A DNA stretch of 64,000 nt, from UHGV virus genome UHGV-0141541; one strand, 5' to 3'. The notes below the pieces were generated by a model that was not told where the DNA came from, did no database searches, and saw only the letters and a list, made by a program, of their open reading frames with translations. The stretch comes from a virus. The translations under genes were made by a program, and so were the position numbers. Below, one piece after another: positions 4,523-54,297 of this stretch; the stretch's first letter is position 1; the number at the start of each line of letters is the position of its first letter.

Positions 4523-6097
4523 TCACTCGTTCTCTTGAGTAGATGAGTCCCCATTCCCTCGGGGTTGATCTTGCCCGCTTTCTTGGGCTGCACCACGATC
4601 ATAAGTAAGTACTGACTTATTTTCAAGGGTGTTTAGATCATTTTTTGGAGGAAAATTCAAGAGATCTTTATCAAATTCCTTTTTCATCGCCTCAGTAATG
4701 TTCGGGAAAATCTTCTCAATAAGCATTTCCATCTGGTGACGACGTACAGAGTCCGGTGCCTGAAGTAATGACAGTTTCTCGGCAACAGAAAATTCATCAG
4801 TAAGGCCACGAATATCGAAACTTTCTGGATACGCAATTAAAGAGTGGTCTTCGTCCAGATCTACCCCCATCCATTTCGCAACCAGTAGCATGATTTGGCG
4901 TTCAGCCCTTTCCAGACGCTCTGCTTTTGTGACAAGCAAGCTATTTACACGCTGGAAGTCATACATTTTTGCGGCACCAGATGAATTATCGATTCCCTGT
5001 GCGTTGTCCTGCTTCGTTCGCTCACCAGCTACACCAACTGAATGGTAGATTTCGTTAATCACCGTCTTAATCGTAGTGATGATCATCTGAGCTTGTTTCG
5101 GGTCTGGTGACAGATAAAACGGCTGGTTTCCACCTTCAGAATCGTAGGTGAAGACTCGCTTTGTGCCCATTTCAAGCACTTTAGTGTGGTTTTCATCACC
5201 AGGTAAAAGCGACTGTACCGGTATAGCCAACTGGCTAAATGTCTGATCCTGAATAATGGCATCAAGGTTTGACAGATAGTTTGCAACCGCACGATCAAGA
5301 TAAGCGATATCATCGATTAACGATGGGCTGAAATACGGTGATTCACTTTCTCCAATACAATCAACAGGAAACACAGGAACTACGCCGAGATTATGCTCAC
5401 CGCTATCCTCTAAAATAACTTTTGCCTGACGGCGACCTGCTCCACCAGCGCCCTTCTTCACTTCCTCACGGAACAGATACCACTCGTTTTGTGTCCACAG
5501 ACGATAACGTTGGTATTCCTGACCTGTAGAAGTAAAAGGATCTGCGTCATCACGAGCGACTTCCACAATTAACGCCCATAACATATTCCCGTCGTCGTCC
5601 CATGCCACATCCAGCATTTGCTGAGGTGAAATCCAGTAGGCGTAGGCACGAGCATCTTTCTTTTTCTCGTCAGCTACTGACTCAACATCACCACTCATTG
5701 TGCTATCAACAACAACCCAGATACGGCCGTAGATTGACGATTGCAAATCAATGGCGGCCATAAATGAGTCAATAGAGGCATTCTGGCGAGTCGCACGTTT
5801 CCAGAAATTGCGGATCTGCTCTGGTGCCTCTTCGATATTTCTATGAATGTCTTCTTTAAAGAGATATTTGTTGATGAGGTTTACCACCTCACGAGTGTGG
5901 TTGAAGCGATAAGCACGCTCAACTCGCTCCTTAAACTCCTGATCTCCCTCTTTAAAGTAACGAAAGATATTGTCTGTAAACCAACCACGCCCGCCAGCGT
6001 AAGTGCTGGCGAGGAAGTCCCAATGTTCTTTTTTCTTTTCGTATTCCGGGTGGCGTCGCGCCACCAGATCCTTAATTTGTTTGTCGTTCAATTCCAT
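4523..6097 (-). CDS. portal protein (putative)
   Basis: 524 aa ORF immediately downstream of terminase large subunit; size and position typical of portal; no motif verified. Confidence 0.55.
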   Translation of the reverse strand: MELNDKQIKDLVARRHPEYEKKKEHWDFLASTYAGGRGWFTDNIFRYFKEGDQEFKERVERAYRFNHTREVVNLINKYLFKEDIHRNIEEAPEQIRNFWKRATRQNASIDSFMAAIDLQSSIYGRIWVVVDSTMSGDVESVADEKKKDARAYAYWISPQQMLDVAWDDDGNMLWALIVEVARDDADPFTSTGQEYQRYRLWTQNEWYLFREEVKKGAGGAGRRQAKVILEDSGEHNLGVVPVFPVDCIGESESPYFSPSLIDDIAYLDRAVANYLSNLDAIIQDQTFSQLAIPVQSLLPGDENHTKVLEMGTKRVFTYDSEGGNQPFYLSPDPKQAQMIITTIKTVINEIYHSVGVAGERTKQDNAQGIDNSSGAAKMYDFQRVNSLLVTKAERLERAERQIMLLVAKWMGVDLDEDHSLIAYPESFDIRGLTDEFSVAEKLSLLQAPDSVRRHQMEMLIEKIFPNITEAMKKEFDKDLLNFPPKNDLNTLENKSVLTYDRGAAQESGQDQPRGNGDSSTQENE

Positions 6098-6123: not shown

Positions 6124-7380
6124 CTATCGAGAACCACCAAGAATAACACGGTTTTTGACTGGATACCTACGATGTACTGGATAGCCCAATGCGTCTGCAC
6201 TATGCTCAATGCCACCTGTCTTATCCATATCTCGTGTTCCAGGCTTGTAGATGACTTTTTCCAGTGAATCAATCAAATGCTTGCACTTCGGATCGATATA
6301 CAGCCGGATATCTCCAGATGCGGACATCAGCATTCGGTTAACAGCATTAACACGATCCGCAATTGGCGGGTGCTTTTTCGAATAATCGACACGTAAGAAT
6401 CCCTTCTCTTTGAATATGTCTACGTCAGACTCCCCACGAGCATGTTGGCGATAAGCACCTGCCGGATCTGGAAATACCGTTACCTGTGATTTCCAGCGCC
6501 AGAAGCGTCTCTCAAGCTCATCACAAACTTCTGCCGTGTTAGAGGAAAAGAGCACCAATTCATCAATTGCCCATAGCTCACCATTTGGCTGAGGTTGCAA
6601 AATTACTGAAGACATCGGGTCAATGTTGAAGTCCTGCCCTACCCATATAGGCAACCGAGGGTTGAACTGAAGCGGTTTTACATGCACGTTACGATCGAAC
6701 GGGTAGTAAACGCGCCCGGACATGTTCTCAAAGCTGGCCAGGTACTCCTGAGCGAACGATTTGGGGTCCATATCGTTCTTAGCAGCTTCAATTTCCGCCG
6801 TAGGTACAAACGGAGAATCGGCAGTTACAAACTGCCAGCTCTTCCACTGTCCCTTTCTTTGCAGCTCTACGTTCTGGCCTATAGTCCACAGTTTGTGAAA
6901 TTCCGAGAAGCCTTTTGGCGTACCAATGATCAGTGCACCGCCGCGTGTCGATGAAAGAGTAGGTCGTAACACCTTGTACCAGGTGTCAGCCTTCATATCC
7001 TGAAATTCATCAAGCACTACAAAATGCAACGCTACGCCGCGCAGAGTGTCAGGCTTATCAGCACCTTTGAGGGCGATCTCCGAACCGTTCTTCAACACGA
7101 TTGTCATCGTGGTGTCGTTCTTTTTCCTAACCCACTTACGAGGCAGAACTTCCTGTAGATCGTCCCACAAAATCTGGCGAGCCATCTGGTAAGTAGGAGC
7201 GACATACCAGACCCTTTGCTTTTTTTCCTTTGCCGCCGCACGAATAATAGTGGAGATCGACAACCGGGATTTTCCCCAGCGTCGACCAGCACAAACAACT
7301 TTAAATCGATGCGGAGACTGGAAGACTTTCATCTGTCCAGAATGCAGTTGCACAAGACTGAGCGAGGACGGGATTGCCAT
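6124..7380 (-). CDS. terminase large subunit
   Basis: 418 aa; Walker A-like CAGRRWGKS, Walker B VVLDEF, C-terminal nuclease-like region; precedes portal. Confidence 0.85.
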   Translation of the reverse strand: MAIPSSLSLVQLHSGQMKVFQSPHRFKVVCAGRRWGKSRLSISTIIRAAAKEKKQRVWYVAPTYQMARQILWDDLQEVLPRKWVRKKNDTTMTIVLKNGSEIALKGADKPDTLRGVALHFVVLDEFQDMKADTWYKVLRPTLSSTRGGALIIGTPKGFSEFHKLWTIGQNVELQRKGQWKSWQFVTADSPFVPTAEIEAAKNDMDPKSFAQEYLASFENMSGRVYYPFDRNVHVKPLQFNPRLPIWVGQDFNIDPMSSVILQPQPNGELWAIDELVLFSSNTAEVCDELERRFWRWKSQVTVFPDPAGAYRQHARGESDVDIFKEKGFLRVDYSKKHPPIADRVNAVNRMLMSASGDIRLYIDPKCKHLIDSLEKVIYKPGTRDMDKTGGIEHSADALGYPVHRRYPVKNRVILGGSR

Positions 7381-8012
7381 TATTCGTCCTCCCCTTCACT
7401 TCCATCATCTGTCGCATCAAATTCGCTTAGAGCTTCTTCTTCCAACGTCTCAAGCAATTCGTCATCGATGATTTCAGGCTCGTCGTCTTCCTGACGTAAT
7501 TTCGCCACCTGGGAAGGCGTAAGCTCACCAAATACCAGGTTCGGAATTTCTTCCTCGTCATTTTCCGCATGATCCATGCCCAATGCTTTGGACGAAACTT
7601 CAAAGCATTTTGCAAGGGTATTACTGGCTCTCTGTAAGCTCTTGAGAGAATCCTCAATCGCCCCTAAAGGCTTACCCTCACGTTTGGCCGTAGTGACTTC
7701 GACCATCACCATCTGCCCCAACGCATACGCCCAGCCGTCATAACGTGTACGACGTTCTTCTATCTTTTCCGCACGGGCTTTAGCGCGAAGCTCTGCGTCA
7801 GATTTAAGAGACTCACGAACCATCTTCCCAACAGAGTCCGCGCCTTTCTCTAATCCTCGCTTTTTGAAATGTCTGGAGAGTGTTTCACGACGAATGCCGT
7901 ACTCTTCCTCCAGCTTTGAGAGTGTATATTCGCCTGACGTCCATTTGGCTTCAGCTTCGGCCCACTCCGCTGGTGTCAGGCGAGTTTTTACCTCGTCTTT
8001 TTCGACCGTCAT
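7380..8012 (-). CDS. terminase small subunit (putative)
   Basis: 210 aa, overlaps terL start by 1 nt; N-terminal helix-turn-helix-like region and very acidic C-terminus; RBS GAGGG upstream. Confidence 0.5.
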   Translation of the reverse strand: MTVEKDEVKTRLTPAEWAEAEAKWTSGEYTLSKLEEEYGIRRETLSRHFKKRGLEKGADSVGKMVRESLKSDAELRAKARAEKIEERRTRYDGWAYALGQMVMVEVTTAKREGKPLGAIEDSLKSLQRASNTLAKCFEVSSKALGMDHAENDEEEIPNLVFGELTPSQVAKLRQEDDEPEIIDDELLETLEEEALSEFDATDDGSEGEDE

Positions 8013-8124
8013 AGATCCCTCTAAAACACACAGAGCGCGTCCATGCGCTCTAAAACAACTTGTTTACTGCATCTGCTAACCAACTTGTTTTCTGGGGTGT
8101 TTAATTAGGTCTGGCATGTCTTAC

Positions 8125-8185
8125 GAAGCCTGCTTCCGTATATATTTAATAAGTTACTTATTATTTATATATACAGATGCAGGTC
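8125..8185. promoter_or_regulatory. IR-flanked AT-rich element (copy A), upstream of terminase operon
   Basis: GCCTGCTTC ... GATGCAGGTC arms around the AT-rich core TATATATTTAATAAG...TATTTATATATACAGA; near-identical to 37174-37233. Confidence 0.5.
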
Positions 8186-8207
8186 TTTAAATAAGCTCCC
8201 AGACCGA

Positions 8208-8474
8208 TTACATCACCAGTAACTTCGCTTTGGCTCGACCTAAAGTGGTTAACCCAAGAGTTCGGCGGTGATAGCGATTGTCACTGCGTTGGCGCGTATG
8301 CCCTTTCTCCACCAGCCCCTTTTTTATCAGAGCGCGAATTGAGAACTGGATACTTTGCTTGGTTGTCTTGTACGGCAAAACTTCAAGCAATTCGTCCAGG
8401 TCAAGTAGATGACCTCGCTCATAACCGAGATTGAGCGTTTTGATGATGTCCTTTTGTTTATCGGTTAACGTCAT
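8208..8474 (-). CDS. small basic putative winged-helix DNA-binding protein
   Basis: 88 aa, last gene of the ParB/ATPase/GNAT operon; helix-rich basic sequence; fold assignment is a guess. Confidence 0.4.
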   Translation of the reverse strand: MTLTDKQKDIIKTLNLGYERGHLLDLDELLEVLPYKTTKQSIQFSIRALIKKGLVEKGHTRQRSDNRYHRRTLGLTTLGRAKAKLLVM

Positions 8475-8483
8475 GGCAAATCC

Positions 8484-9374
8484 TTATGCCGGTAAAGCAA
8501 TTTCTAACGGTTTATCCAAAGGTTGTTTGTCGAATGCCAGCAGTGGCAGCGTGTCAGGCAGTCGACGGCCAAAGTCAGGGTTTCGGTACACACCATACAA
8601 CGGAGACGTAAAGCTCAGGTTGTGAATGTCCTTGAGCAGCTTCACAATGCTGGCCTCGTCCACCAGACTGTCGGCAATGTCCTGAATCGTCGTGCCACGA
8701 TTCCGCCCAGCTTTTGCCAGGGAACTGTTCTTGTGGTAGTCCGCCACCAGATCACGCAGTGCACGGCGACGACGAGACTCGCTCATTGCGAACAACTCTT
8801 TGACGATCGCCTCGTTATCACCCGGGTCGGAACGGAAATGGCGCTGGAATACACGCAGTGCACTTTCATAGCTCTTCGGTCGCTCAGGGCGGATGAACTT
8901 AAACCCTGCTTTCATGGCGAAGGGATTGTATTTGCTCATCGAGGACTGGATCTCAATGATTGGCCGGTCATGCATCCTGCTAACTAGGTTAATCATTCGA
9001 TAAGAGACGCCTACGCCACGATACTGAGTATCCACAACTGAGCGACTGATCACCGCAAAGTTGTTATTCACGTACCGACCCCAGTACTGGTTAGCCACGG
9101 TGGTATTAGTGGTTGGTTTCAACTTAGGAAACATGCGGTGGCGAGGTGCCAGCAGTAGTTTCGGGTAAGCCATAACCACGACGCCCACCAGACGGTCATC
9201 AAGTTCGCAGCGATAGTAAGTTGGCGCGAAAGGTTTGCCGTCTGTTTTGTAGTGAAGCGACTTAAGAGCGTGCCAGTCCTCTACAGTTCCCTTTGTGACA
9301 GTCATTCGCTCCAGAAAGTCCAGATGACGCGGAAACTCTTCAGGGCGGTAGCGTTTAATGATGATGTCCGTCAT
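8484..9374 (-). CDS. GNAT-family acetyltransferase domain protein with C-terminal extension
   Basis: 296 aa; GNAT motif A-like VDTQYRGVGVSYRMINLV and motif B-like NPFAMKAGFKFI; 4-nt overlap with upstream ATPase gene. Confidence 0.55.
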   Translation of the reverse strand: MTDIIIKRYRPEEFPRHLDFLERMTVTKGTVEDWHALKSLHYKTDGKPFAPTYYRCELDDRLVGVVVMAYPKLLLAPRHRMFPKLKPTTNTTVANQYWGRYVNNNFAVISRSVVDTQYRGVGVSYRMINLVSRMHDRPIIEIQSSMSKYNPFAMKAGFKFIRPERPKSYESALRVFQRHFRSDPGDNEAIVKELFAMSESRRRRALRDLVADYHKNSSLAKAGRNRGTTIQDIADSLVDEASIVKLLKDIHNLSFTSPLYGVYRNPDFGRRLPDTLPLLAFDKQPLDKPLEIALPA

Positions 9375-10036
9375 AAATGAACCTCATCATGACTACCATT
9401 GTGATATTCCACCTTCACGCGTTCTTTGTAGTGCTTGGTGATCTGCATATCCGGGCGCAGCGCGTTCTTCAGGTCTTCGTGAGTCGTCGCCACCATTACC
9501 GTCGCACCAACCTTTCGAGCGGCACGCTGGAGGTTAGATGCCACAACCTGAGCGGTTACACGGTCTAGAACAGCACCGAACTCGTCAGCAGCCCACACTT
9601 TAGCGCCTGACTCAATCAGTTTGGCAATCTTGAGACGATATTTCTGACCGTCTGACATTTCAGAAGGCTTGCGAACAAACAGATATGCATCGTTCAGACC
9701 AGCCATAGATAACAACCCAAGCGCATCGCTGGTCGTTTTGCCCAACTGATCGATGACGTTAACCTCATTATCGAAGGTAAAATCATCGATGGAGGCTACA
9801 GACAGCCCTTCATCCTTCATCTGTCGTTGCAACTCGCGCAGCACAACGGATTTGCCGGAACCGGATTGGCCGGTGATGTACACCACATCGCCCTGCTTCA
9901 CTTCCAGCTCCAGATTGTCGTAAAGCGTCCACTCTTTTTCGTCCAGGCCAAGCCCGAACGACTCAGCGATTTCCAACGTGCGCGTGGTTTTATTTACGCG
10001 TGTCTGAAACGATACGTTGATGATGTATTTGTTCAT
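9371..10036 (-). CDS. ABC-type ATPase (nucleotide-binding domain only)
   Basis: 221 aa; Walker A GQSGSGKS, ABC signature-like SDGQKYR, Walker B VWAADEFG, H-loop TTHE; no transmembrane partner adjacent. Confidence 0.7.
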   Translation of the reverse strand: MNKYIINVSFQTRVNKTTRTLEIAESFGLGLDEKEWTLYDNLELEVKQGDVVYITGQSGSGKSVVLRELQRQMKDEGLSVASIDDFTFDNEVNVIDQLGKTTSDALGLLSMAGLNDAYLFVRKPSEMSDGQKYRLKIAKLIESGAKVWAADEFGAVLDRVTAQVVASNLQRAARKVGATVMVATTHEDLKNALRPDMQITKHYKERVKVEYHNGSHDEVHL

Positions 10037-10734
10037 GCAGCCATCTCCCCGGAAGAGATCTTCTCCGCATATGCCACAAATGCGTCTACCCCGCTTTCTC
10101 CCGTCATTTCTTCCATGTGGGCAAGCAAATCACCAACAACAATGGCAGAGCCAGCAGGAAGCGTTTTAAAGCCCAATACGTCGACAACACGTACTTCTTC
10201 CGCTGCAACTTCACGACTGATCTCGGTGTGTTCATCCTTCTGTCGTTTAGTTTCTTCGCCAAGATCGATAACTAGCGAGTCGGTGTCCATTTCTTCTGTC
10301 ATGCTGCCAACGAGAACATTCAACTCACGCTCTTCAAAGCCGAAAACCTCGATATCGTCCAGAACAAGCGACTCAAGCTCTTTCTGTAGCTTAATTGCAT
10401 CGTAATCAATGCTGGCAAGTCGGTTATCTTCAAGGCGCTTCGCACGAACCTCGTCATCACTGAGATCATCGCGAACAATAACCGGTACGCGCTCAAGTCC
10501 AGCAAAAATTGCAGCCTCACGGCGGCCGTGGCCAGTAATAATTACGTCGTTCTTATCGACCGTAATTGGCTGGTCAAATCCGCGCTTTTTAATGGCTGCG
10601 GCTAGATCTCGGATCTGCTGTTCATCATGCTTTTTGGCATTCATCTCATAGGGAATAAGATCTGCCGGGTCGCGATATACGATTTCTAACTTTTTGGTCA
10701 TTACATACGCTCCTTGTAGTAGTCGACCAGCCAC
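10033..10734 (-). CDS. ParB N-terminal (ParB/Srx-like nuclease) domain protein
   Basis: 233 aa; ParB box ITGHGRREAA; acidic C-terminal half; real start may be MTKKLEIVY at 10702. Confidence 0.7.
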   Translation of the reverse strand: MAGRLLQGAYVMTKKLEIVYRDPADLIPYEMNAKKHDEQQIRDLAAAIKKRGFDQPITVDKNDVIITGHGRREAAIFAGLERVPVIVRDDLSDDEVRAKRLEDNRLASIDYDAIKLQKELESLVLDDIEVFGFEERELNVLVGSMTEEMDTDSLVIDLGEETKRQKDEHTEISREVAAEEVRVVDVLGFKTLPAGSAIVVGDLLAHMEEMTGESGVDAFVAYAEKISSGEMAA

Positions 10735-11399
10735 ACCAGAGCCTCACCAGCGTTCTCCATTTCATTACCGGTGTTAATAGCCTGCTCTTTGATGATGTTT
10801 TTTATGGTTTCTGCAACACGATCTGACGCATCGAAAGTTACTTTGAAGCGCATGGTCTGATGTTCCGCACCCACACGTTCGGTTTTCTCTCGTTTGTCGG
10901 TATCGACAGGCTCATCACTACCACGAGACAACGCCTCCAGTGCTTCAAGGTCGATTGCCGCCTCTTTTGCTAAAACCATCGAGATTTCGTCGTCATACGG
11001 GGCGATTTCAGACAGCTGATAGTCAAGTTCTGACTGAATTTCTTCAATGAAGCGTTGCAATGCGATTTGGTCGTCTTCACCGTATCGCTCGTTGTCCACC
11101 AGTGACATCTGTTTAGCTACGACATCGCTAATTTTGCCCACAGAAAGCACCGGAACCGTTGAAATTCCTTGCTCAATAGCAGCACGCCAGCGATGTTCGC
11201 CGCCGAGGATTTCAAAAAATCCATCTTCAAGTTCACGAGCCAAAATTGGCTTAAAAAAGCCCAATTTTTCGATAGAACCTTTCAGTTTTTCAAAATTCTG
11301 CGCACCAACCGAATTGGTGTTCCAGGTATTCGGGCGAAGGTTGGCAACATCAACCTGCAAAATCGTGATTTTTACATCCATTTTATTGCTACAATCCAC
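10701..11399 (-). CDS. ParB N-terminal domain protein (second copy)
   Basis: 232 aa; ParB box ILGGEHRWRAA; directly upstream of first ParB-like gene; start may be MDVKITI at 11381. Confidence 0.7.
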   Translation of the reverse strand: MDCSNKMDVKITILQVDVANLRPNTWNTNSVGAQNFEKLKGSIEKLGFFKPILARELEDGFFEILGGEHRWRAAIEQGISTVPVLSVGKISDVVAKQMSLVDNERYGEDDQIALQRFIEEIQSELDYQLSEIAPYDDEISMVLAKEAAIDLEALEALSRGSDEPVDTDKREKTERVGAEHQTMRFKVTFDASDRVAETIKNIIKEQAINTGNEMENAGEALVWLVDYYKERM

Positions 11400-11463
11400 T
11401 AAGTAATCACTTACTTATTATAATAGCCAAATAACATACAAAAGGCACTAAGGAAAGAGGTTT

Positions 11464-13023
11464 ATGACTGTTCGGATTGTATCTAACGCAGTTAATGCGC
11501 TTATTTCTGGCGCAGATGACAAGGTAAAGCAAATGGTGCAACAGATGTTGAGCTACGAAGTCGAGACTGGCGACTGGAAGGGCACAAGCACGATGTTCAA
11601 CTGGAGTAAAAACTCGTTCCCTGCTGGCTTTGCCAAGCCTGTAGCGGCGAACTTGAACAAGGCGGGCATCAAATGTGTTCATATCCGCAAAGACAAAACC
11701 CCGGCGCTTGGTAAACCAAATCCTGCGGTTAACCCATTCCCATACAATCCTGATTATGCGTATCAGGATCAGACTGTGGAAACACTGGTTCGAGAGGGAA
11801 TGATGATTGCGCAGATCGCTACTGGTGGCGGGAAATCTAACGTTGCCTGCAAAGCAGCTGCACGTATCGGTCGAATGACATTATTTTTAACAACCCGCTC
11901 TGTTCTGATGTTTCAAATGGCCGAAAACTTCCAGAGATCCATCGACTACCGCGCCGAAAATGGCGAACCGTGGTTAAAAGACCAAAAGGTTGGAGTCATT
12001 GGCTCGGGTGAGTTCCAGGTATCACGACATATCAACGTCGCTACAGTTCAAACTCTTGCAAGTTTCCTCGAAGAACCACCACGCGATGCAACACCAGATA
12101 AGAAAAGCTACCACCTCAAACGTCGGGAGTTGGTGAAACGCTTCCTTTCAAGTGTCTCTCTTCTTATTCTGGAAGAGGCGCATGAGTCTTCAGGCTCAAA
12201 TTTCTATGACATCGCCAGATTATGTGTGAACGCAGACTATCGTCTGGCGCTTACAGCCACGCCGTTCATGAAGGATTCGACGGAAGCCAACATGCGCCTG
12301 ATGGCGGTGGCCGGGCGAATTGAAATTAAAGTCACAGAAAAGTACCTGATTGATCGAGGCATTCTGGCAAAGCCGTACTTCCTTTATCATAAAGTTGCCT
12401 ACAAGCCAGACGAGGCCAGAATCAAGGCCGAACTTGCCAACAAACACCTCAATTTTAGAGTTGGTATGAGCACCGCCTACCAAAAGGCTTATCAGTTGGG
12501 GATCGTGTATAATTTGGGACGTAACGAGGCCATTGTTCGCGAAGCATTGCTCTATAAGCAACATTCTCTCAATTGTATGACTCTGGTTCGTCTTAAACGC
12601 CACGGGCAAATCCTGATGGAAATGATGAAAGAGTCCGGCCTTAGAGTTGACTTCATCTATGGGGAATCTAACCAGGCGACAAGGCAAGCAAAGCTGAACA
12701 GTTTAGCGTCTGGAGAAATAGATGTTTTAATAGGCTCGACTATTCTGGATGTCGGTGTTGATGTGCCAAGCGTTGGTGCGGTCATTCTTGCTGGTGGTGG
12801 GAAAGCAGAAGTTGAAATGAGGCAGCGTGTCGGTCGTGGCTTACGAGCCAAAAAAAATCAGGCAAACGTGTGTTTTATCACTGATTTCATTGACATTAGC
12901 AACAAATACCTGTTGTCTCACTCTTATGAGCGAAAACACATCATCGACACCACACCTGGCTTTGCAGAAGGTGTATTGCCTATTGATGGAGCATTCGATT
13001 TTGGAGTTCTGAAACGAGATTAG
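11464..13023 (+). CDS. superfamily 2 DExH helicase
   Basis: 519 aa; motif I ATGGGKS, motif II LEEAHE, motif III TATP, motif VI QRVGRGLR. Confidence 0.8.
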   Translation: MTVRIVSNAVNALISGADDKVKQMVQQMLSYEVETGDWKGTSTMFNWSKNSFPAGFAKPVAANLNKAGIKCVHIRKDKTPALGKPNPAVNPFPYNPDYAYQDQTVETLVREGMMIAQIATGGGKSNVACKAAARIGRMTLFLTTRSVLMFQMAENFQRSIDYRAENGEPWLKDQKVGVIGSGEFQVSRHINVATVQTLASFLEEPPRDATPDKKSYHLKRRELVKRFLSSVSLLILEEAHESSGSNFYDIARLCVNADYRLALTATPFMKDSTEANMRLMAVAGRIEIKVTEKYLIDRGILAKPYFLYHKVAYKPDEARIKAELANKHLNFRVGMSTAYQKAYQLGIVYNLGRNEAIVREALLYKQHSLNCMTLVRLKRHGQILMEMMKESGLRVDFIYGESNQATRQAKLNSLASGEIDVLIGSTILDVGVDVPSVGAVILAGGGKAEVEMRQRVGRGLRAKKNQANVCFITDFIDISNKYLLSHSYERKHIIDTTPGFAEGVLPIDGAFDFGVLKRD

Positions 13024-24451: not shown

Positions 24452-25552
24452 ATGAGCGAGTCCAAATCGCCGGATGCCCTGAGAGCAATGGTAGCCGGTA
24501 CGCTGGCTAATTTTCAGCACCCAACCCTGAAACACAACCTGACTACGCTTAAAGCGTTACACCATGTTGCGTTGATGGATGACACACTGCATGTCGAACT
24601 AATCATGCCTTTCGTGTGGAATAAGCCTTTTGAAGACCTGAAAGAGCAATGTAGTGGTGATCTGCTCCGTATCACTGGCGCAAAGGCTATTGACTGGAAG
24701 CTGTCGTACAACATTGCCACGCTTAAGCGCGTCAAAAACCAACCAGGCATTAATGGCGTTAAGAACATTATCGCCGTCAGCTCAGGCAAGGGCGGCGTGG
24801 GTAAATCCTCCACGGCGGTAAACCTGGCACTGGCGTTGGCTGCTGAAGGTGCGAAAGTTGGTATTTTGGATGCCGATATCTATGGTCCATCAATTCCAAC
24901 CATGCTGGGCGCGGAAAACCAACGTCCAACCTCACCTGACGGTACTCACATGGCACCTATCATGTCTCATGGCCTGGCAACCAACTCTATTGGTTATCTG
25001 GTCACCGACGACAATGCAATGGTGTGGCGTGGACCGATGGCCAGCAAGGCGCTGATGCAGATGTTGCAGGAAACTCTATGGCCTGATCTGGACTATCTCG
25101 TTCTCGATATGCCGCCGGGCACTGGTGATATTCAGTTGACGCTGGCGCAGAACATTCCTGTAACTGGTGCGGTTGTGGTAACTACGCCGCAAGACATCGC
25201 GCTGATCGATGCGAAGAAAGGCATTGTGATGTTCGAAAAAGTCGAAGTGCCGGTACTGGGTATCGTTGAAAACATGAGTGTGCATATTTGCAGTAACTGC
25301 GGTCATCACGAGCCAATTTTTGGCACCGGTGGCGCACAGAAACTGGCCGAGAAATACAACACGCAGTTGTTAGGCCAAATGCCACTTCATATCTCTCTTC
25401 GTGAAGATCTGGATAACGGAACACCAACCGTTATTAGTCGTCCAGATAGCGAATTTACAGCTATTTATCGTGACCTCGCAGATCGCGTTGCTGCCCAAAT
25501 GTATTGGCAAGGTGAAGTAATACCTGGCGAAATCGCATTCCGCGCAGTGTGA
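24452..25552 (+). CDS. apbC: iron-sulfur cluster carrier protein ApbC/Mrp, host-type
   Basis: 366 aa; deviant Walker A SSGKGGVGKSS, CxxC motif (CSNCGH); divergent from metG with 157-bp intergenic region, the arrangement I recall for E. coli. Confidence 0.93.
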   Translation: MSESKSPDALRAMVAGTLANFQHPTLKHNLTTLKALHHVALMDDTLHVELIMPFVWNKPFEDLKEQCSGDLLRITGAKAIDWKLSYNIATLKRVKNQPGINGVKNIIAVSSGKGGVGKSSTAVNLALALAAEGAKVGILDADIYGPSIPTMLGAENQRPTSPDGTHMAPIMSHGLATNSIGYLVTDDNAMVWRGPMASKALMQMLQETLWPDLDYLVLDMPPGTGDIQLTLAQNIPVTGAVVVTTPQDIALIDAKKGIVMFEKVEVPVLGIVENMSVHICSNCGHHEPIFGTGGAQKLAEKYNTQLLGQMPLHISLREDLDNGTPTVISRPDSEFTAIYRDLADRVAAQMYWQGEVIPGEIAFRAV

Positions 25553-28760: not shown

Positions 28761-29615
28761 TCATAACACTTCCCATTTATCACCATATTTCTCCATAGCT
28801 CTTAGCCAGTAAACATGGCCACTAGGCATAGTGATGTGAGGCTCACCAAACTCTTCTCCATGTACATCAAAGATGTCCCCAACAGAAAATTGGGGGATTT
28901 CTGTTCCGTTTTCACCTATATGTGTAATTCGTATACGTTTCGGTTGGGATTGTCCACCTTTGAGCGAGTTGTTCACTGCTCTGGCAATTTTCTCCCGCAA
29001 TTGCTGCGTTCCGTGATACGTAACCGCAATATCCCTCAACTCGTTCACCAGTTCTCGAATCTGGTGATCTTTAAGCTCATTATTTGGGTGATTGGTAACA
29101 ACTCTGGTTAATTCACCCTTGTCTTTTGCTCTTACGTATGCAGCTCTTGTGCATTCGACCCATGTATTACCGCCTACATTAACTTCGTAGATTAGGCTGG
29201 ACTTATCTGTCAATTCGGAACAAATACGGGCCGTGGTCTGGCAACTAGAGCATTCGCAGTTATCGCGGAAACCGTGGTCTACTGGCTTCGGTTTCACATC
29301 ATCAACTTTTTCTACCCTATCGGAATTTAAATACTTCGAAGCCTTGCTATGCCAATCGCTGGTTTTAGGATCTTGTCCATCCATCAAACGCCAGGCTTCA
29401 GCGATTAACTCATAACTAGTGACTGTAGCTTCCTGCGCATCACCAATAAGTCGTGTAATCTCTCTTTCAAGCCGACCGCCTAGCTCTGTTTTAGTGCAAT
29501 GTTCTGACCAATCGCCAGCCTCAAGCAGCGCGAGAATGCTTAAAATATCGTCCAATAGATCAGTGGTATTATCGACTTCCTTCTGAAACTCACCGGCTAC
29601 TGATTTATGCATCAT
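28761..29615 (-). CDS. hypothetical protein with Cys-rich segment
   Basis: 284 aa; CECSSCQ...C cluster; overlaps the downstream Toprim-like ORF by 26 nt in another frame. Confidence 0.5.
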   Translation of the reverse strand: MMHKSVAGEFQKEVDNTTDLLDDILSILALLEAGDWSEHCTKTELGGRLEREITRLIGDAQEATVTSYELIAEAWRLMDGQDPKTSDWHSKASKYLNSDRVEKVDDVKPKPVDHGFRDNCECSSCQTTARICSELTDKSSLIYEVNVGGNTWVECTRAAYVRAKDKGELTRVVTNHPNNELKDHQIRELVNELRDIAVTYHGTQQLREKIARAVNNSLKGGQSQPKRIRITHIGENGTEIPQFSVGDIFDVHGEEFGEPHITMPSGHVYWLRAMEKYGDKWEVL

Positions 29616-29833
29616 TCGTCATCCTCATCCGAGTCATCCTCATCACAGGATGAGAGTAGTGGGTTAGTCATTCGCCCTACTTGAGTGGCGTAGCCACGCC
29701 GACAGAGATTGCGCAGCACACTGTATATTTCGAACATCTCGGTTCGTTCATCGCCAACATCAAACTCAGATGCTATAGCGTGGCATTCAGTCGCGAGAGC
29801 CGATATTTTCTGAAATAACTCTGCTTTATTCAC
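29612..29833 (-). CDS. hypothetical small acidic protein
   Basis: 73 aa, 4-nt overlaps with both neighbours. Confidence 0.4.
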   Translation of the reverse strand: MNKAELFQKISALATECHAIASEFDVGDERTEMFEIYSVLRNLCRRGYATQVGRMTNPLLSSCDEDDSDEDDE

Positions 29834-30330
29834 TCTTCGACTCCTTTACGAAGCTGTTCAGCAATACTTACGCATATCTCTGCGCCTCTAATCAGCCCCG
29901 GAACGTTCTTGTTTGGCCCAACTTCACCATCAACAAAATCAATCATCGCGTTACGAGCCATATCCACGCCTTGCGCACGTACTTCAGCCAGAAAAGCATC
30001 GGTGGCTGGAGTCTCCGTTAATTCGCTAACCCAATTATCTCCGTGTTCGTCGGCACACATCTCATCGAATGCTCGCTCAGATTCTTTCAGGGCTGCATTC
30101 TCCGCCGCTAATGCGTCTCTCTGCGCCCGCAACTTCTCAATTTCGGCAGCCATGTAGTAACCAACCATAGCGAAGACGGCAAAAGAGTTGTCTGCCTCAT
30201 CAGGCGACACTGAGGCCATTAGCAGACCATCGTAATAATCGTGACTCCCATTGGTGATCGCCACCGCATAGGAGTCGTGGTTCTCACGCTTGTGAATGAG
30301 AACTACGGGGTTTTCGATTTTGTTACTCAT
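29830..30330 (-). CDS. hypothetical protein
   Basis: 166 aa ORF. Confidence 0.5.
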   Translation of the reverse strand: MSNKIENPVVLIHKRENHDSYAVAITNGSHDYYDGLLMASVSPDEADNSFAVFAMVGYYMAAEIEKLRAQRDALAAENAALKESERAFDEMCADEHGDNWVSELTETPATDAFLAEVRAQGVDMARNAMIDFVDGEVGPNKNVPGLIRGAEICVSIAEQLRKGVEE

Positions 30331-30468
30331 GTGTTTTTCTCTTCTTTGCTGTTACATAAGCACTACCAAGTGCTGGTTTATTTTCACAAATAAGAAAAGG
30401 TAGAAAACAATTTATTTAAGGCCACAACTTATGGCCTTTATTTATTCATGCCGAAGGATTTGTAGCGT

Positions 30469-40047: not shown

Positions 40048-40692
40048 CTAATGAACGGTCACTCGGCCACAGAACCGGTTTTCTATCTTTTCTACAGCGT
40101 TATCTAGCATTCTCATCACTGATCTGGCTCTTGCTTCAACCGTGCGATACCGGTTGGAAACGACGAAGGTTTGCAGATCTCCCCTTTGCGGATGCAGGTG
40201 AATTTTTGTCAGTTCCCCGCACATCAACGCATCAATACGAGCGACATACAGACGGTCTAATGATGCTCGTTGTGATCGCAAGTAATCTCGCTCTGAGAGA
40301 GCGACTCCCGGGCGTAAGCCAGCAATGGCGTTAAAGTTTGAAATAGCAGTTTTGTGGCAAAACTTTTCGATATCGAGGGCTAACTCAATACACCGATCTT
40401 CATTTGTATGGCCGACCAAATCCAACGTGTAGGCCATAACATCAGCAGGTGTGCGATCGATAACAAAGCCTTCAACACCACGCGTAAGTAGCTCTATATG
40501 CTTTGCTATTTCCATTTGAATCTGAAGCCGCTCATATAGAGGCATAGAATCACCTACTCGAACACCGAGGCGGCTCATCAAACTTCCGACACCAGCATCC
40601 ACGTAAGGGATTCCGTAATGTTTGTCGATATATTTAGCCAGGGTTGTTTTCCCACTGCCCTGAGCACCAGTGATCCCAATCCGGTAATCCAT
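40048..40692 (-). CDS. P-loop kinase, possible dNMP kinase
   Basis: 214 aa; Walker A GITGAQGSGKTT at N-terminus; in nucleotide-metabolism block next to DHFR/ThyA; substrate unverified. Confidence 0.55.
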   Translation of the reverse strand: MDYRIGITGAQGSGKTTLAKYIDKHYGIPYVDAGVGSLMSRLGVRVGDSMPLYERLQIQMEIAKHIELLTRGVEGFVIDRTPADVMAYTLDLVGHTNEDRCIELALDIEKFCHKTAISNFNAIAGLRPGVALSERDYLRSQRASLDRLYVARIDALMCGELTKIHLHPQRGDLQTFVVSNRYRTVEARARSVMRMLDNAVEKIENRFCGRVTVH

Positions 40693-52236: not shown

Positions 52237-52881
52237 TTACAGCGCGTCAGTGGGCTTTTTACGCGCTGCGTTTATGCTTATGACGCCAGCTTTTGGACGT
52301 GGGTCAACAAGGTTAAGCTCTTCTTCGCTGTGGTATTCGAGGTCGAACTCACGTTTTACATGTCTGATGTAGATTGCGGTGAGCAGGCTATCTTTGGTCA
52401 GAAAGTGTCCGTAGGATTTGCGGATCACTTCTTCTACCTTCTCGATTTTCTCACCACCCATACAGAGATGATTAAACCGGCTGTGTTTCCGCAACATTTC
52501 GTCTACTGGGCCTGAGTAAACCTTGTCTACTTTCCCAAAACGGATGATTTTCCCTGTGTCTGCGGATACAAGGCAAATCAGCTTGTCTGGTGATAAACGA
52601 TCTCGCCACGTCACACCTGAACGGAGTGTGTTGAAGTAGGGTGCATCCAATCCGATGATCGGTTTACGAAATGCGAGCAATGGAACGTACCTGATGCAAC
52701 TGTTTAAATGAAAGTTCACACCAGCCTTATCAAGTTTAATTCTGGTTTCGTAGATCGGGCACTTCGCCGCTATACCGCAGATGTCACAAAGCAACTTCTG
52801 CTTATTCAGGTTGGAATTTGATTCGATAGTGTAGGAGCCGTTTTCAAGACGACGAACCCAGCGCGTGCGTTTTAGATCCAT
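52237..52881 (-). CDS. hypothetical protein with putative zinc ribbon
   Basis: 214 aa; CDICG...C cluster. Confidence 0.5.
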   Translation of the reverse strand: MDLKRTRWVRRLENGSYTIESNSNLNKQKLLCDICGIAAKCPIYETRIKLDKAGVNFHLNSCIRYVPLLAFRKPIIGLDAPYFNTLRSGVTWRDRLSPDKLICLVSADTGKIIRFGKVDKVYSGPVDEMLRKHSRFNHLCMGGEKIEKVEEVIRKSYGHFLTKDSLLTAIYIRHVKREFDLEYHSEEELNLVDPRPKAGVISINAARKKPTDAL

Positions 52882-53081: not shown

Positions 53082-53182
53082 TATGCTGCCAGCGGTAATT
53101 GATAGTCTGTCAACGGTTCGCCGTATGCTGCCAACTGTTTTTGGTATGCTGCCAGCGGCAAATCAAGTATGCTGTCAGCGGT
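53082..53182. repeat. iterons upstream of rep (4 copies, consensus TATGCTGYCAGCGGT)
   Basis: copies at about 53082, 53123 (degenerate), 53145 and 53168. Confidence 0.75.
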
Positions 53183-53202
53183 TGAATGACAAAGGTGTCC
53201 AC

Positions 53203-54297
53203 ATGTCCACAAAAAATAAAAAAGGTAAAAATAACAAAGAAGTAGAAGATAATCTCGACAACTTTGAAGAAGGTTCCCTTGAATTGTACACAGGGGAACT
53301 TGTCCCTAATAGCAACAATACAGTCCAACCAATTGCGTTGATGCGGCTGGGGTTGTTCGTGCCCACGCTCAAGGGGACAAAATACAGCAAGCGTAACAAG
53401 CCAAATGAGATCGATGCTTCAAAGGAGCTTGTTCAGCTCGAAGTAGCCCGTTCTGAAGGCTATTCCGATATCAAGATAACCGGTCCTCGTCTCGACATGG
53501 ATCATGATTTCAAAACGTGGGTGGGCGTTGTGCGTTCGCTGGCAGAATACGGCGAACCTAACGGTCGTGTCGAGTTAAGCATCACGAAATTTGCGAAGTT
53601 TTGTGGCTATCCATCGTCACAGATCCGCAAAACACTCCGCGACCGGCTTACAAACAGTCTTTTGAAGATCATGCGTACAACTCTGTCTTTCCAGAGAACG
53701 TATGAAGAAAAGAACGTCGACGGCTCTAACAAGATCTCGCTTCTGATGGTGCACCTCATCAATAGCGTGGACTACAACGAGCAGAAAGATACGGTGGTGT
53801 TCTATGCAGAACCGAAGCTGGCCGAACTATATCGCTTTGACCATAAGGTTCTTTTGCAGTTAAAGGTTATCAATAAGCTACCACGCAAAGAAACAGCACA
53901 GGCTCTGTACACCTTCATCGAAAGTCTTCCAACCAAGCCTGCGCCGGTATCGCTTGCTCGATTGCGTGCGCGACTCAATTTGAGTAGCAGGAATGTCAGC
54001 TCGCAGAATCAGACTATACGTAACGGCTTAAAAGCTCTCCAAGATTTGGGCTATCTCGAATATAGCGAGATTAAGCGGGGGCGGTCGATCTATATCCAGA
54101 TTCACAGCCGCAATCCAAAACTCAAAGTCGCACCGCCAAAACCTGAAGACATCGAACCCAAAAAACCAGATGAGAAAGCCGGGGAAATTGATGCTAAACA
54201 GAACATTATCAACAAGATAACTGAACTTTCGCAGAATTTGACGCCTGAAAATATCAAGATGATTGAGATCCTTTCCAATAGTCTCAAACTGCTTTGA
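53203..54297 (+). CDS. iteron-binding replication initiator (RepA-like), putative
   Basis: ORF track 53083-54297; start moved to MSTKNKKGK (RBS AAGGTG) because the N-terminal extension is encoded by the iterons; flanked by iteron arrays. Confidence 0.6.
   Translation: MSTKNKKGKNNKEVEDNLDNFEEGSLELYTGELVPNSNNTVQPIALMRLGLFVPTLKGTKYSKRNKPNEIDASKELVQLEVARSEGYSDIKITGPRLDMDHDFKTWVGVVRSLAEYGEPNGRVELSITKFAKFCGYPSSQIRKTLRDRLTNSLLKIMRTTLSFQRTYEEKNVDGSNKISLLMVHLINSVDYNEQKDTVVFYAEPKLAELYRFDHKVLLQLKVINKLPRKETAQALYTFIESLPTKPAPVSLARLRARLNLSSRNVSSQNQTIRNGLKALQDLGYLEYSEIKRGRSIYIQIHSRNPKLKVAPPKPEDIEPKKPDEKAGEIDAKQNIINKITELSQNLTPENIKMIEILSNSLKLL

Follow-up and report, generated by a model that had tools for sequence, protein, structure and literature searches.

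A ParB, ABC ATPase and GNAT gene module beside the terminase of SSU5-like phage-plasmids, and the case for a possible role in acylation of phage DNA

What do two ParB-like proteins, an ABC-type ATPase, a GNAT-fold protein and a small basic protein do together in a phage that encodes them side by side, next to its terminase? The question is raised by positions 8208-11399 of UHGV virus genome UHGV-0141541, analysed as a stretch of 64,000 nucleotides (in what follows, the window is this whole stretch). The five genes constitute one functional module of the phage core genome that is in all likelihood neither a transporter nor a plasmid partition system, and the reading of it that we favour, with a probability of roughly 0.4, is that phage DNA is acylated in an ATP-dependent reaction, with help from the ParB-like proteins, before it is packaged. 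An earlier note, made from the letters of the sequence, had not recognised the combination of these genes as a described system. That view has survived searches of Pfam, NCBIfam, PADLOC, PHROGs and the literature: profile searches for a known partition or modification system with this five-gene set placed it in none, and PADLOC-DB returned short P-loop matches (mad3, PtuA) and matches of part of a ParB to MTase_II models, with no full-length match. Among the functions that the note had put forward, a DNA-modifying or packaging-linked role is favoured here and partition is disfavoured.

All five open reading frames (ORFs) of 8208-11399 are on the minus strand and co-directional. From the upstream end of the operon they are:

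10701-11381, minus strand: ParB-like 1, 226 amino acids from its ATG, with a GTG extension to 11399; Pfam ParB_N, E 3e-13
10033-10701, minus strand: ParB-like 2, 222 amino acids; ParB_N, E 1.4e-8; phrog_930, E 2e-112
9371-10036, minus strand: ABC-type ATPase, 221 amino acids; Pfam ABC_tran, E 6e-13
8484-9374, minus strand: GNAT-fold acyltransferase-like protein, 296 amino acids, isoelectric point (pI) 9.8
8208-8474, minus strand: small basic protein, probably of the winged helix-turn-helix (wHTH) type, 88 amino acids, pI 10.2; phrog_900, E 2e-45

The ATG at 11381 is the start of ParB-like 1 annotated in related records. Translational coupling of the genes through 4-nt overlaps, as the note had it, applies to two of the four junctions, ParB-like 2/ATPase and ATPase/GNAT, each with an ATGA overlap; the two ParB genes overlap by 1 nt (TAATG), and the GNAT and wHTH genes are separated by a 9-nt gap. 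The placement of one compact block beside the terminase stands as described: a 195-bp spacer follows it, and then come the TerS-like, TerL and portal genes. Each of the five genes matches a full-length PHROG family and their order is kept in distant phages, so that the arrangement, on this comparison, is not due to chance.

The ATPase and the GNAT-fold protein are the part of the module that can be traced farthest. In the ATPase the Walker A motif, a signature-like SDGQ, the Walker B DE with its catalytic glutamate, the D-loop and the H-loop are all present, readable as GQSGSGKS, MSDGQKYR, VWAADEF, AVLDR and TTHED and conserved across ten family members, and its ABC_tran score (50 bits against a cutoff of 25) places it in the ABC superfamily. 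When ten ATPases from very different phages are aligned, they form one clade with the signatures DEF[GT][AS]V[LV]DR and H.D...L.PD; by this alignment, the window ATPase belongs to a dedicated, phage-specific ABC clade fused to GNAT domains. The absence of a transporter partner, also noticed earlier, is borne out: no hydrophobic run of more than 8 residues occurs in any of six neighbouring proteins checked, and since none of the five proteins of the operon has a run as long as a membrane helix, the ATPase is an ABC-type nucleotide-binding protein in an operon without a membrane protein.

The product of the fourth gene is, as had been supposed, a GNAT-fold protein with a C-terminal extension: the fold occupies residues ~1-165 and the extension is conserved. 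The alpha/beta fold and the loop that binds the pyrophosphate of CoA (Q/R-x-x-G-x-G/A) place it in the GNAT superfamily, and acyl transfer is predicted for it; a PDB sequence search with the profile of this GNAT-like family gave coiled-coil noise only. Among 1.84 billion representative proteins the same profile has 899 matches. The close family consists of stand-alone proteins of ~290-320 amino acids, and the distant relatives listed are mostly proteins of ~450-500 amino acids in which the matched GNAT-like part lies at about residues 200-480 (E 1e-27 to 1e-15); ABC_tran was found N-terminal to this part in all ten of the fused relatives scanned with Pfam. In BLASTP comparisons with one such fused protein (P0185), the window ATPase aligns to the N-terminal half with 49% identity over 213 amino acids (E 4e-68) and the window GNAT-like protein to the C-terminal half with 26% identity (E 1e-14), and the gene order, ABC then GNAT, equals the domain order of the fused proteins. 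To judge from these alignments, an ABC-GNAT protein that phages widely encode as a single fused chain is split here into two genes. Close relatives of the window GNAT-like protein carry the JGI product name 'ABC-type ATPase with predicted acetyltransferase domain'; this JGI/GenBank name we take to be equivalent to COG2401, and no paper on a COG2401-type ABC-GNAT family, which is one of phages and archaea, was found in the literature. The database label 'ABC transporter ATP-binding subunit' (phrog_886), which has been attached to the GNAT-fold gene, is wrong, the protein not being an ATPase.

The two tandem genes at the head of the operon do encode ParB N-terminal domain proteins, both passing the Pfam ParB_N threshold. 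The N-terminal fold and an arginine-rich nucleotide-binding motif that is kept in both (GGEHRWRAA in ParB-like 1, GHGRREAA in ParB-like 2) place them in the ParB/Srx superfamily (Pfam PF02195). ParB-like 1 (pI 4.55) begins with the ParB/Srx domain, continues through a helical middle part and a linker that is disordered and acidic, and ends in a C-terminal strand with two helices; this last extended segment and its helices are confidently assigned and ribbon-helix-helix-like, with conserved motifs RF(K) and NxGxAL. (The diverse alignment of ParB-like 1 was seeded with the ortholog from Pseudomonas phage nickie, as Klebsiella clusters at 87% identity saturated the search seeded from the window.) ParB-like 2 (pI 4.53) is a paralog with the same layout. 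Its residues 11-165 match phrog_498, 'DNA methyltransferase' (E 4e-32), and its N-terminal part is closest to the ParB domain of phage ParB-methyltransferase fusions; GHGR, N93, G177 and G201 are invariant, N93 standing in a DN[RK] motif whose aspartate is not. The C-terminal domains of both proteins are strand-helix-helix and net acidic, that of ParB-like 2 having 2 basic and 7 acidic residues. Pfam finds ParB_N alone in either protein, and neither the ParB helix-turn-helix (HTH) nor the canonical ParB C-terminal domain; the NCBIfam model TIGR00180 scores 43 bits, below its cutoff of 58; and by inspection the LG[KR]GL-type motif that stimulates ParA is absent from both N-termini (MDVKITILQ, MTKKLEIVY).

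The immediate setting of the module is given by its neighbours:

7380-8012, minus strand: TerS-like
6124-7380, minus strand: TerL
4523-6097, minus strand: portal (evidence for the three: Pfam Terminase_6N/6C, phrog_867 and terminase PHROGs)
11464-13023, plus strand: UvsW-like SF2 helicase (Pfam ResIII/DEAD/Helicase_C)

Positions 7380-11399 are 98-99% identical to Escherichia phages CMS-2020a, PhiR41_1 and Cyrano and 80-85% identical to Salmonella phage SSU5 and Klebsiella phage-plasmids; because of these identities the window is, at the level of nucleotide comparison, assigned as part of an SSU5-like phage-plasmid of ~108 kb. Also present in it are a Rep3-type initiator (53083-54297) and genes for recombination and replication that are T4-like. 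Throughout the SSU5-like lineage the helicase, which is divergent to the operon, adjoins ParB-like 1, and TerS, TerL and portal are colinear with the module. The same order of nine genes (opposite-strand helicase, ParB-like 1, ParB-like 2, ABC ATPase, GNAT, wHTH, TerS, TerL, portal) is kept in distant relatives: Pseudomonas phage nickie, Rhizobium phages RHEph10 and RHph_X66, Stenotrophomonas phage ANB28, Xanthomonas phage JGB6 and, as the sixth, a locus in a 3.27-Mb contig that has flagellar genes on one side and looks like an integrated prophage. Identity of these six to the window proteins is 53-58% for the ATPase, 54-61% for TerL, 47-51% for the portal protein, 40-52% for the helicase (at the same position in all six), 36-44% for GNAT, 31-39% for ParB-like 1, 33-43% for ParB-like 2, 31-57% for wHTH and 27-32% for TerS. 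Small extra ORFs lie between the ATPase and GNAT genes in some relatives, where the order is kept and the tight overlap is not. The five genes are thus co-conserved across relatives at 31-58% identity, and the ATPase, judged by its identities, is conserved at the level of a core gene, about as TerL is; since it behaves in this way, the outcome that the earlier note had named as fatal to its view, lack of co-conservation, did not materialise. In the JGB6 record two or three coding sequences are annotated for each of the helicase, ParB, terminase and major capsid genes, which suggests many indel errors.

The small protein is basic, as had been said; for the wHTH assignment there are weak matches to NCBIfam Sta1/Lrs14 (E 0.003-0.004) and to the LexA DNA-binding domain (E 0.05-0.07). 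Five of the six distant relatives have, by BLASTP, an ortholog in the corresponding place, the small ORF there in RHEph10 giving no match, and the gene is confined to the SSU5-like lineage.

The ABC-GNAT unit reaches much farther, spanning phages of Proteobacteria, Firmicutes, Actinobacteria, Spirochaetes and Bacteroidetes. (A scan of IMG/VR with the close-family alignment returned only near-identical SSU5-like loci and has no bearing on the independence of these occurrences.) Its company is recurrent. ParB adjoins ABC-GNAT in at least four lineages: in IMG/VR, where 80 SSU5-like loci were fetched, each of the 77 that reach far enough upstream has a ParB gene directly before the unit, as have all 20 P335-like loci and 35 of the 51 Sisko-like ones, only 32 of these 51 having at least 700 nt upstream. 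ParB is a frequent partner of ABC-GNAT across lineages and not an obligatory one. In Lactococcus phage P335, Orf23 (ParB_N), Orf24 (ABC) and Orf25 (GNAT) overlap and lie two genes upstream of TerS-TerL. In Streptococcus prophage 315.4 the order is ParB_N, ABC, a small ORF, an ASCH-domain gene, DUF5681 (read as TerS-like) and TerL. Gordonia phage Sisko has gp1, annotated as ParB-like (Pfam found no domain in it), gp2, a fused ABC-GNAT, gp3, a formyltransferase by Pfam (Formyl_trans_N; L177 1814-2464, misannotated as a tRNA methyltransferase), and gp4, the terminase; in Rhodococcus/Gordonia phage Jace, ParB and ABC-GNAT are followed by aspartate decarboxylase (PanD, E 2e-33). Leptospira phages LE3/LE4, whose gene table is the sole text found in the literature that has ParB-like and ABC genes side by side, encode a ParB-like ORF12, an ABC ORF13 of 366 amino acids and TerL as ORF17 (PMC6078989).

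Two further partners handle DNA. ABC-GNAT is fused to a family B DNA polymerase in metagenomic phages, as a protein of 1260 amino acids with exonuclease and polymerase domains (L008 8001-11783; also L009 and L010), found identical on at least 24 contigs and located in a replication module with Prim-Pol and RecA; it also occurs in an SPbeta-like replication module and, in Nonlabens phage P12024S, between primase and helicase. TerL is directly upstream of ABC-GNAT in 43 of the 72 placed loci of one IMG/VR lineage (L094-L173, 80 fetched), and ABC-GNAT is directly upstream of TerL in Pseudoalteromonas phage SL25.

Formyl_trans_N follows ABC-GNAT in 45 of the 51 Sisko-like loci and in a Porphyromonas phage, and at loci L181 (5086-5559) and L180 (5092-5517) the gene after ABC-GNAT encodes a formyltransferase (Porphyromonas phage) or PanD (Jace). 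The start of a distant stand-alone GNAT homolog (L012 6346-7822) is overlapped by a Mom-family gene (PF25680, E 6e-6, just under the cutoff), in a cluster that also holds two methyltransferase-like genes and a separate ABC ATPase. Formyltransferase, PanD, ASCH, Mom-like and methyltransferase neighbours are of kinds seen in base-modification pathways. ASCH proteins hydrolyse N4-acylcytosine (PMC6972931), and the ASCH neighbour in 315.4 loosely fits a reading in which bases are acylated. A gene of Cyrano named 'ASCH' (window 52237-52881) was considered as another link to acyl-cytosine; Pfam gave no confirmation and it was not used.

How might such a set of proteins work? On the reading that we favour, the ATPase would dimerise on ATP and bring two GNAT domains onto phage DNA, and GNAT would acylate an exocyclic base amine, N4 of cytosine and N6 of adenine being examples of possible targets and acetyl-CoA, as donor of an acetyl group, the simplest source. 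The ParB paralogs, probably as a heterodimer and switched by nucleotide, would keep the enzyme on double-stranded DNA or activate it there. Timing would be set by the wHTH protein together with the palindromes that flank the operon (described below), with replicated DNA being marked before the adjacent terminase packages it, and the mark would protect phage DNA in the next host. What argues for this reading is the relation of the split genes to the fused protein, the recurrence of ParB, neighbours of the modification type, the precedents taken up at the end and conservation at the level of core genes, together with the distribution of charge, the GNAT protein being basic (pI 9.8) and the ParBs acidic (pI 4.5). 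DNA is preferred as the substrate mainly because ABC-GNAT is repeatedly found coupled, physically or genetically, to three machines that track along DNA: ParB, DNA polymerase and terminase.

Several observations weigh against acylation of DNA before packaging. Directly before the ribosome-binding site of TerS there is a GC hairpin (8031-8052, minus strand) followed by the T-rich TGTGTGTTTT; its stem changes on both sides in SSU5-like relatives (GAGCGC/GCGCTC, GAGCAC/GTGCTC, CGGCGC/GCGCCG), and it probably terminates or attenuates transcription where the module gives way to the packaging operon. To judge from the hairpin, the five genes would be a transcription unit in their own right, ending or attenuated before TerS, and with a terminator-like element separating the two operons, co-expression with the packaging genes cannot be assumed. 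Adjacency to the terminase may reflect nothing beyond the usual place of late-acting genes of DNA metabolism, at the end of the replication module. The ParB C-terminal domains, being acidic, would seem ill suited to direct binding of DNA; a ParB gene is nearby in none of the 72 loci of the IMG/VR lineage in which ABC-GNAT follows TerL; and prophage 315.4 has ParB and ABC without GNAT. In the literature no report of acyl modification in SSU5-like virion DNA was found. (Nor was any paper found there that tests the function of the module or that concerns a ParB, GNAT and ABC ATPase combination or DNA modification in SSU5.)

A more sweeping version of the same idea, which we hold as a doubtful conjecture, makes ParB-ABC-GNAT a phage machine that is widespread, has gone unrecognised and puts an acyl mark on the bases of DNA once it has been replicated. 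One candidate for the mark is N4-acetylcytosine, which would be to DNA what the product of TmcA/NAT10 is to RNA; the ABC ATPase would power access to the base, ParB clamps, a fused polymerase or the terminase would carry the enzyme along the genome, and in some lineages the mark would be elaborated or erased by the products of adjacent formyltransferase, PanD or ASCH genes.

Of the alternatives to DNA acylation, the one that survives best, while still unlikely, is an accessory complex for packaging, in which the ParBs (possibly nucleases) and the ATPase would gather at a site close to the terminase genes and help TerS/TerL to recognise or cut the packaging start, with GNAT as a regulator that, for example, acetylates a packaging protein. 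Position speaks for it. At least six unrelated lineages (SSU5-like, P335, 315.4, Sisko, LE4 and SL25) have the module directly upstream of TerS/TerL, and in the IMG/VR lineage in which TerL precedes ABC-GNAT in 43 loci, the fused gene is the last, 300 bp or less from the contig end, in 20 of 72 and never at the upstream end, which suggests a position at the genome terminus. The spacer between the module and TerS, moreover, contains an imperfect palindrome of ~55 bp (8129-8183, centre 8155) with conserved outer arms CCTGCTTCCG/CGGAAGCAGG and an AT-rich centre that differs in relatives while its symmetry is kept. The GenBank records of SSU5 and Cyrano open at window position 8146/8147, within 10 bp of that centre; the palindrome may be a packaging start site, or the opening of the records may be only convention. 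What tells against an accessory role in packaging is that ABC-GNAT is also found in replication modules and in a polymerase fusion, far from any terminase, that its formyltransferase, PanD and Mom-like neighbours have no obvious part in packaging, and that these phages already have a TerS-like gene.

Less probable is that the acyl group, an acetyl, goes to a protein of the host or the phage or to tRNA (an aminoacyl-tRNA or a tRNA base), for takeover of the host or for counter-defence, with ATP spent on remodelling the substrate and the ParBs as regulators. The recurrent partners of ABC-GNAT (ParB, family B polymerase, terminase) handle DNA; no family of defence or anti-defence proteins was matched beyond generic P-loop ones; and conservation like that of a core gene is unusual for counter-defence genes.

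A regulatory role, for which we would give long odds, would have the module exert long-range control over transcription of the late operon (terminase and structural genes) in the manner of KorB-KorA, the ParBs loading as nucleotide-dependent clamps at the flanking palindromes and acting together with the wHTH protein, and ABC-GNAT being their cargo or modulator. The region between ParB-like 1 and the helicase (11382-11463) has an 18-bp palindrome, TAAGTAATCACTTACTTA, at 11400-11417, a dyad that is conserved in SSU5-like relatives and marks the start of the ParB operon. Its class, TAAGTAA-N4-TTACTTA, has nine sites in the window where 0.17 are expected, nearly all of them intergenic and upstream of operons. 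In the spacer between the wHTH gene and TerS (8013-8207), a 13-bp palindrome, AAACAAnTTGTTT, stands at 8053-8065 and again at 8078-8090; at up to one mismatch it has 15 sites in the window where 0.57 are expected, mostly 5-40 nt upstream of minus-strand gene starts, two of them before TerS. The sites are:

4602, 11400, 31597, 35648, 42700, 52096 and 57557: TAAGTAA-N4-TTACTTA, with partial sites at 8143/8150
17193, 17957, 18859, 19343, 20540, 22113, 22164, 30405, 33313, 34027, 34756, 44975 and 56414: AAACAAnTTGTTT, other than the two before TerS

From its placement AAACAAnTTGTTT looks like the operator of a phage-wide regulator, and TAAGTAA-N4-TTACTTA is a second motif of the regulon type besides it. 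An exact core, TAAGTnACTTA, was tried as a shared operator and is not enriched (2 sites against 1.75 expected). Control of this kind leaves ABC-GNAT unexplained, yet ABC-GNAT is the most conserved part and is found elsewhere without ParB or wHTH; the wHTH gene occurs only in the SSU5-like lineage; and the ParBs are acidic, without the HTH of KorB or ParB.

That the two ParBs are centromere-binding proteins that segregate the phage-plasmid is very improbable. Many records annotate both as partition proteins, the duplicated ParB genes of related phage-plasmids have been counted as partition genes (PMC7969092), and a ParA-like gene lies within 3-4 kb in some Rhizobium relatives. Against this, no ParA was found in the operon or in the scanned parts of the window (large ORFs at 53-64 kb), both ParBs lack the ParA-stimulating motif, the HTH and the C-terminal domain of partition ParBs, and in the relative Cyrano a separate ParA, followed by a small gene, is encoded ~27 kb away. 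ParB-ABC-GNAT is also present in the prophage-like locus of the 3.27-Mb contig, in Streptococcus prophage 315.4 and in Lactococcus phage P335, the last two of which are, to our knowledge, not phage-plasmids. The Cyrano pair (29307-30334 of its record, outside the window) consists of a 222-residue ParA and a gene of 119 codons annotated as a RelE/ParE toxin, whose product could instead bind the centromere as part of a type Ib partition system. The Cyrano gene named 'MinD' (window 24452-25552, 366 amino acids) was considered as a partition ATPase and set aside: it reads as Mrp/ApbC-type and adjoins a methionyl-tRNA synthetase gene, and the pair, which resembles the host mrp-metG, has the look of host chromosomal DNA that the phage has captured.

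An ABC transporter moron (a phage-borne accessory gene), suggested by GenBank and PHROG names that include 'ABC transporter' and 'ABC transporter ATP-binding subunit', can be dismissed, there being no membrane protein or hydrophobic segment in an operon whose other members are ParB, GNAT and wHTH, the gene that bears the 'ATP-binding subunit' name (phrog_886) having the GNAT fold, and the clade of the ATPase being one of GNAT fusions. A second 'ABC transporter' of Cyrano (window 40048-40692, minus strand), tried as a paralog of the ATPase, has a single P-loop, GAQGSGKTT, and by eye no ABC signature. It sits in a thymidylate synthase/DHFR cluster and looks like a P-loop protein of the nucleotide-kinase type.

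If DNA acylation is what the module does, acylated bases written by an ATP-driven GNAT enzyme would be a new chemical class of phage DNA modification, and ParB-fold proteins would be found for the third time, independently, in the service of base-modifying enzymes and not of segregation. The carriers are phage-plasmids of the SSU5/pHCM2/pKpn type, common in clinical E. coli, Klebsiella and Salmonella, and further dairy, streptococcal, actinobacterial and spirochaete phages, so that a protective mark, should it exist, would matter for host range, for escape from restriction and CRISPR, and for artefacts in sequencing. Even with the mechanism wrong, both ParBs have been annotated and surveyed as partition genes and the GNAT-fold gene mislabelled as an ABC transporter subunit, and 'partition' and 'transporter' labels of this sort can mislead the classification and annotation of phage-plasmids. 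Neither the module nor the ABC-GNAT family was found described in any profile library searched or in the literature.

What, then, among known systems does the module resemble? Phage ParBs have been met in the company of modifying enzymes before. In one case a thymine dioxygenase is activated on double-stranded DNA by a phage ParB that has no obvious DNA-binding domain (PMC13229309). In this 5mYOX-ParB system the ParB keeps an N-terminal nucleotide-binding fold and a C-terminal domain, lacks an obvious DNA-binding domain and is encoded beside a DNA-modifying enzyme, which needs it on double-stranded DNA; ParB-like 1 and ParB-like 2 share that layout and adjoin an enzyme. The module differs in having an ABC ATPase and GNAT in place of an Fe/2-oxoglutarate dioxygenase, in having two ParB paralogs, and in that modification is here only predicted. 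In a second case, as summarised in PMC12839542, the ParB-like ATPase DpdB is needed by DpdA to insert 7-deazaguanine into DNA; going by that summary, a ParB-like NTPase again gives a base-modifying enzyme ATP-dependent help on DNA, whereas the module adds a separate ABC ATPase and its catalytic fold is GNAT, not that of a tRNA-guanine transglycosylase. Fusions of phage ParB to methyltransferases, and a GTP-binding fusion of ParB to an acetyltransferase, are described in a survey of the fold (PMC12704722).

On the enzyme side, the direct homologs are the fused ABC-GNAT proteins, to whose two halves the window genes align; the window form differs in being two overlapping genes. The resemblance of the window GNAT protein to Mom of phage Mu, a GNAT-fold adenine N6 methylcarbamoylase, is at the level of fold only: the Mom family (Pfam PF25680) gave no match to the window protein at E up to 10, and Mom works without an ABC ATPase or ParB partner. 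TmcA/NAT10, in which GNAT is coupled to an ATPase, acetylates N4 of cytidine in tRNA. By this analogy the chemistry would be feasible, an exocyclic amine of a base in nucleic acid being acetylated there; TmcA differs in its RecD-like helicase ATPase and tRNA-binding domain and in acting on tRNA, and no homology of TmcA/NAT10 to the module was detected beyond the GNAT fold.

With ParABS the module shares the ParB/Srx N-terminal fold, Box II included (GEHRWRAA of ParB-like 1 aligns to GERRYRAA of Spo0J). It differs in that it has no ParA partner, no ParB HTH and no canonical C-terminal domain, its ParBs are acidic, and it is also found in phages that are not known to be plasmids. ParBs without a canonical DNA-binding domain, encoded with a predicted nucleic-acid-modifying enzyme, are what the window contains. 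The module is closest in kind to the ParB-assisted systems of DNA modification, from which it differs by its enzyme and by the addition of an ABC ATPase.

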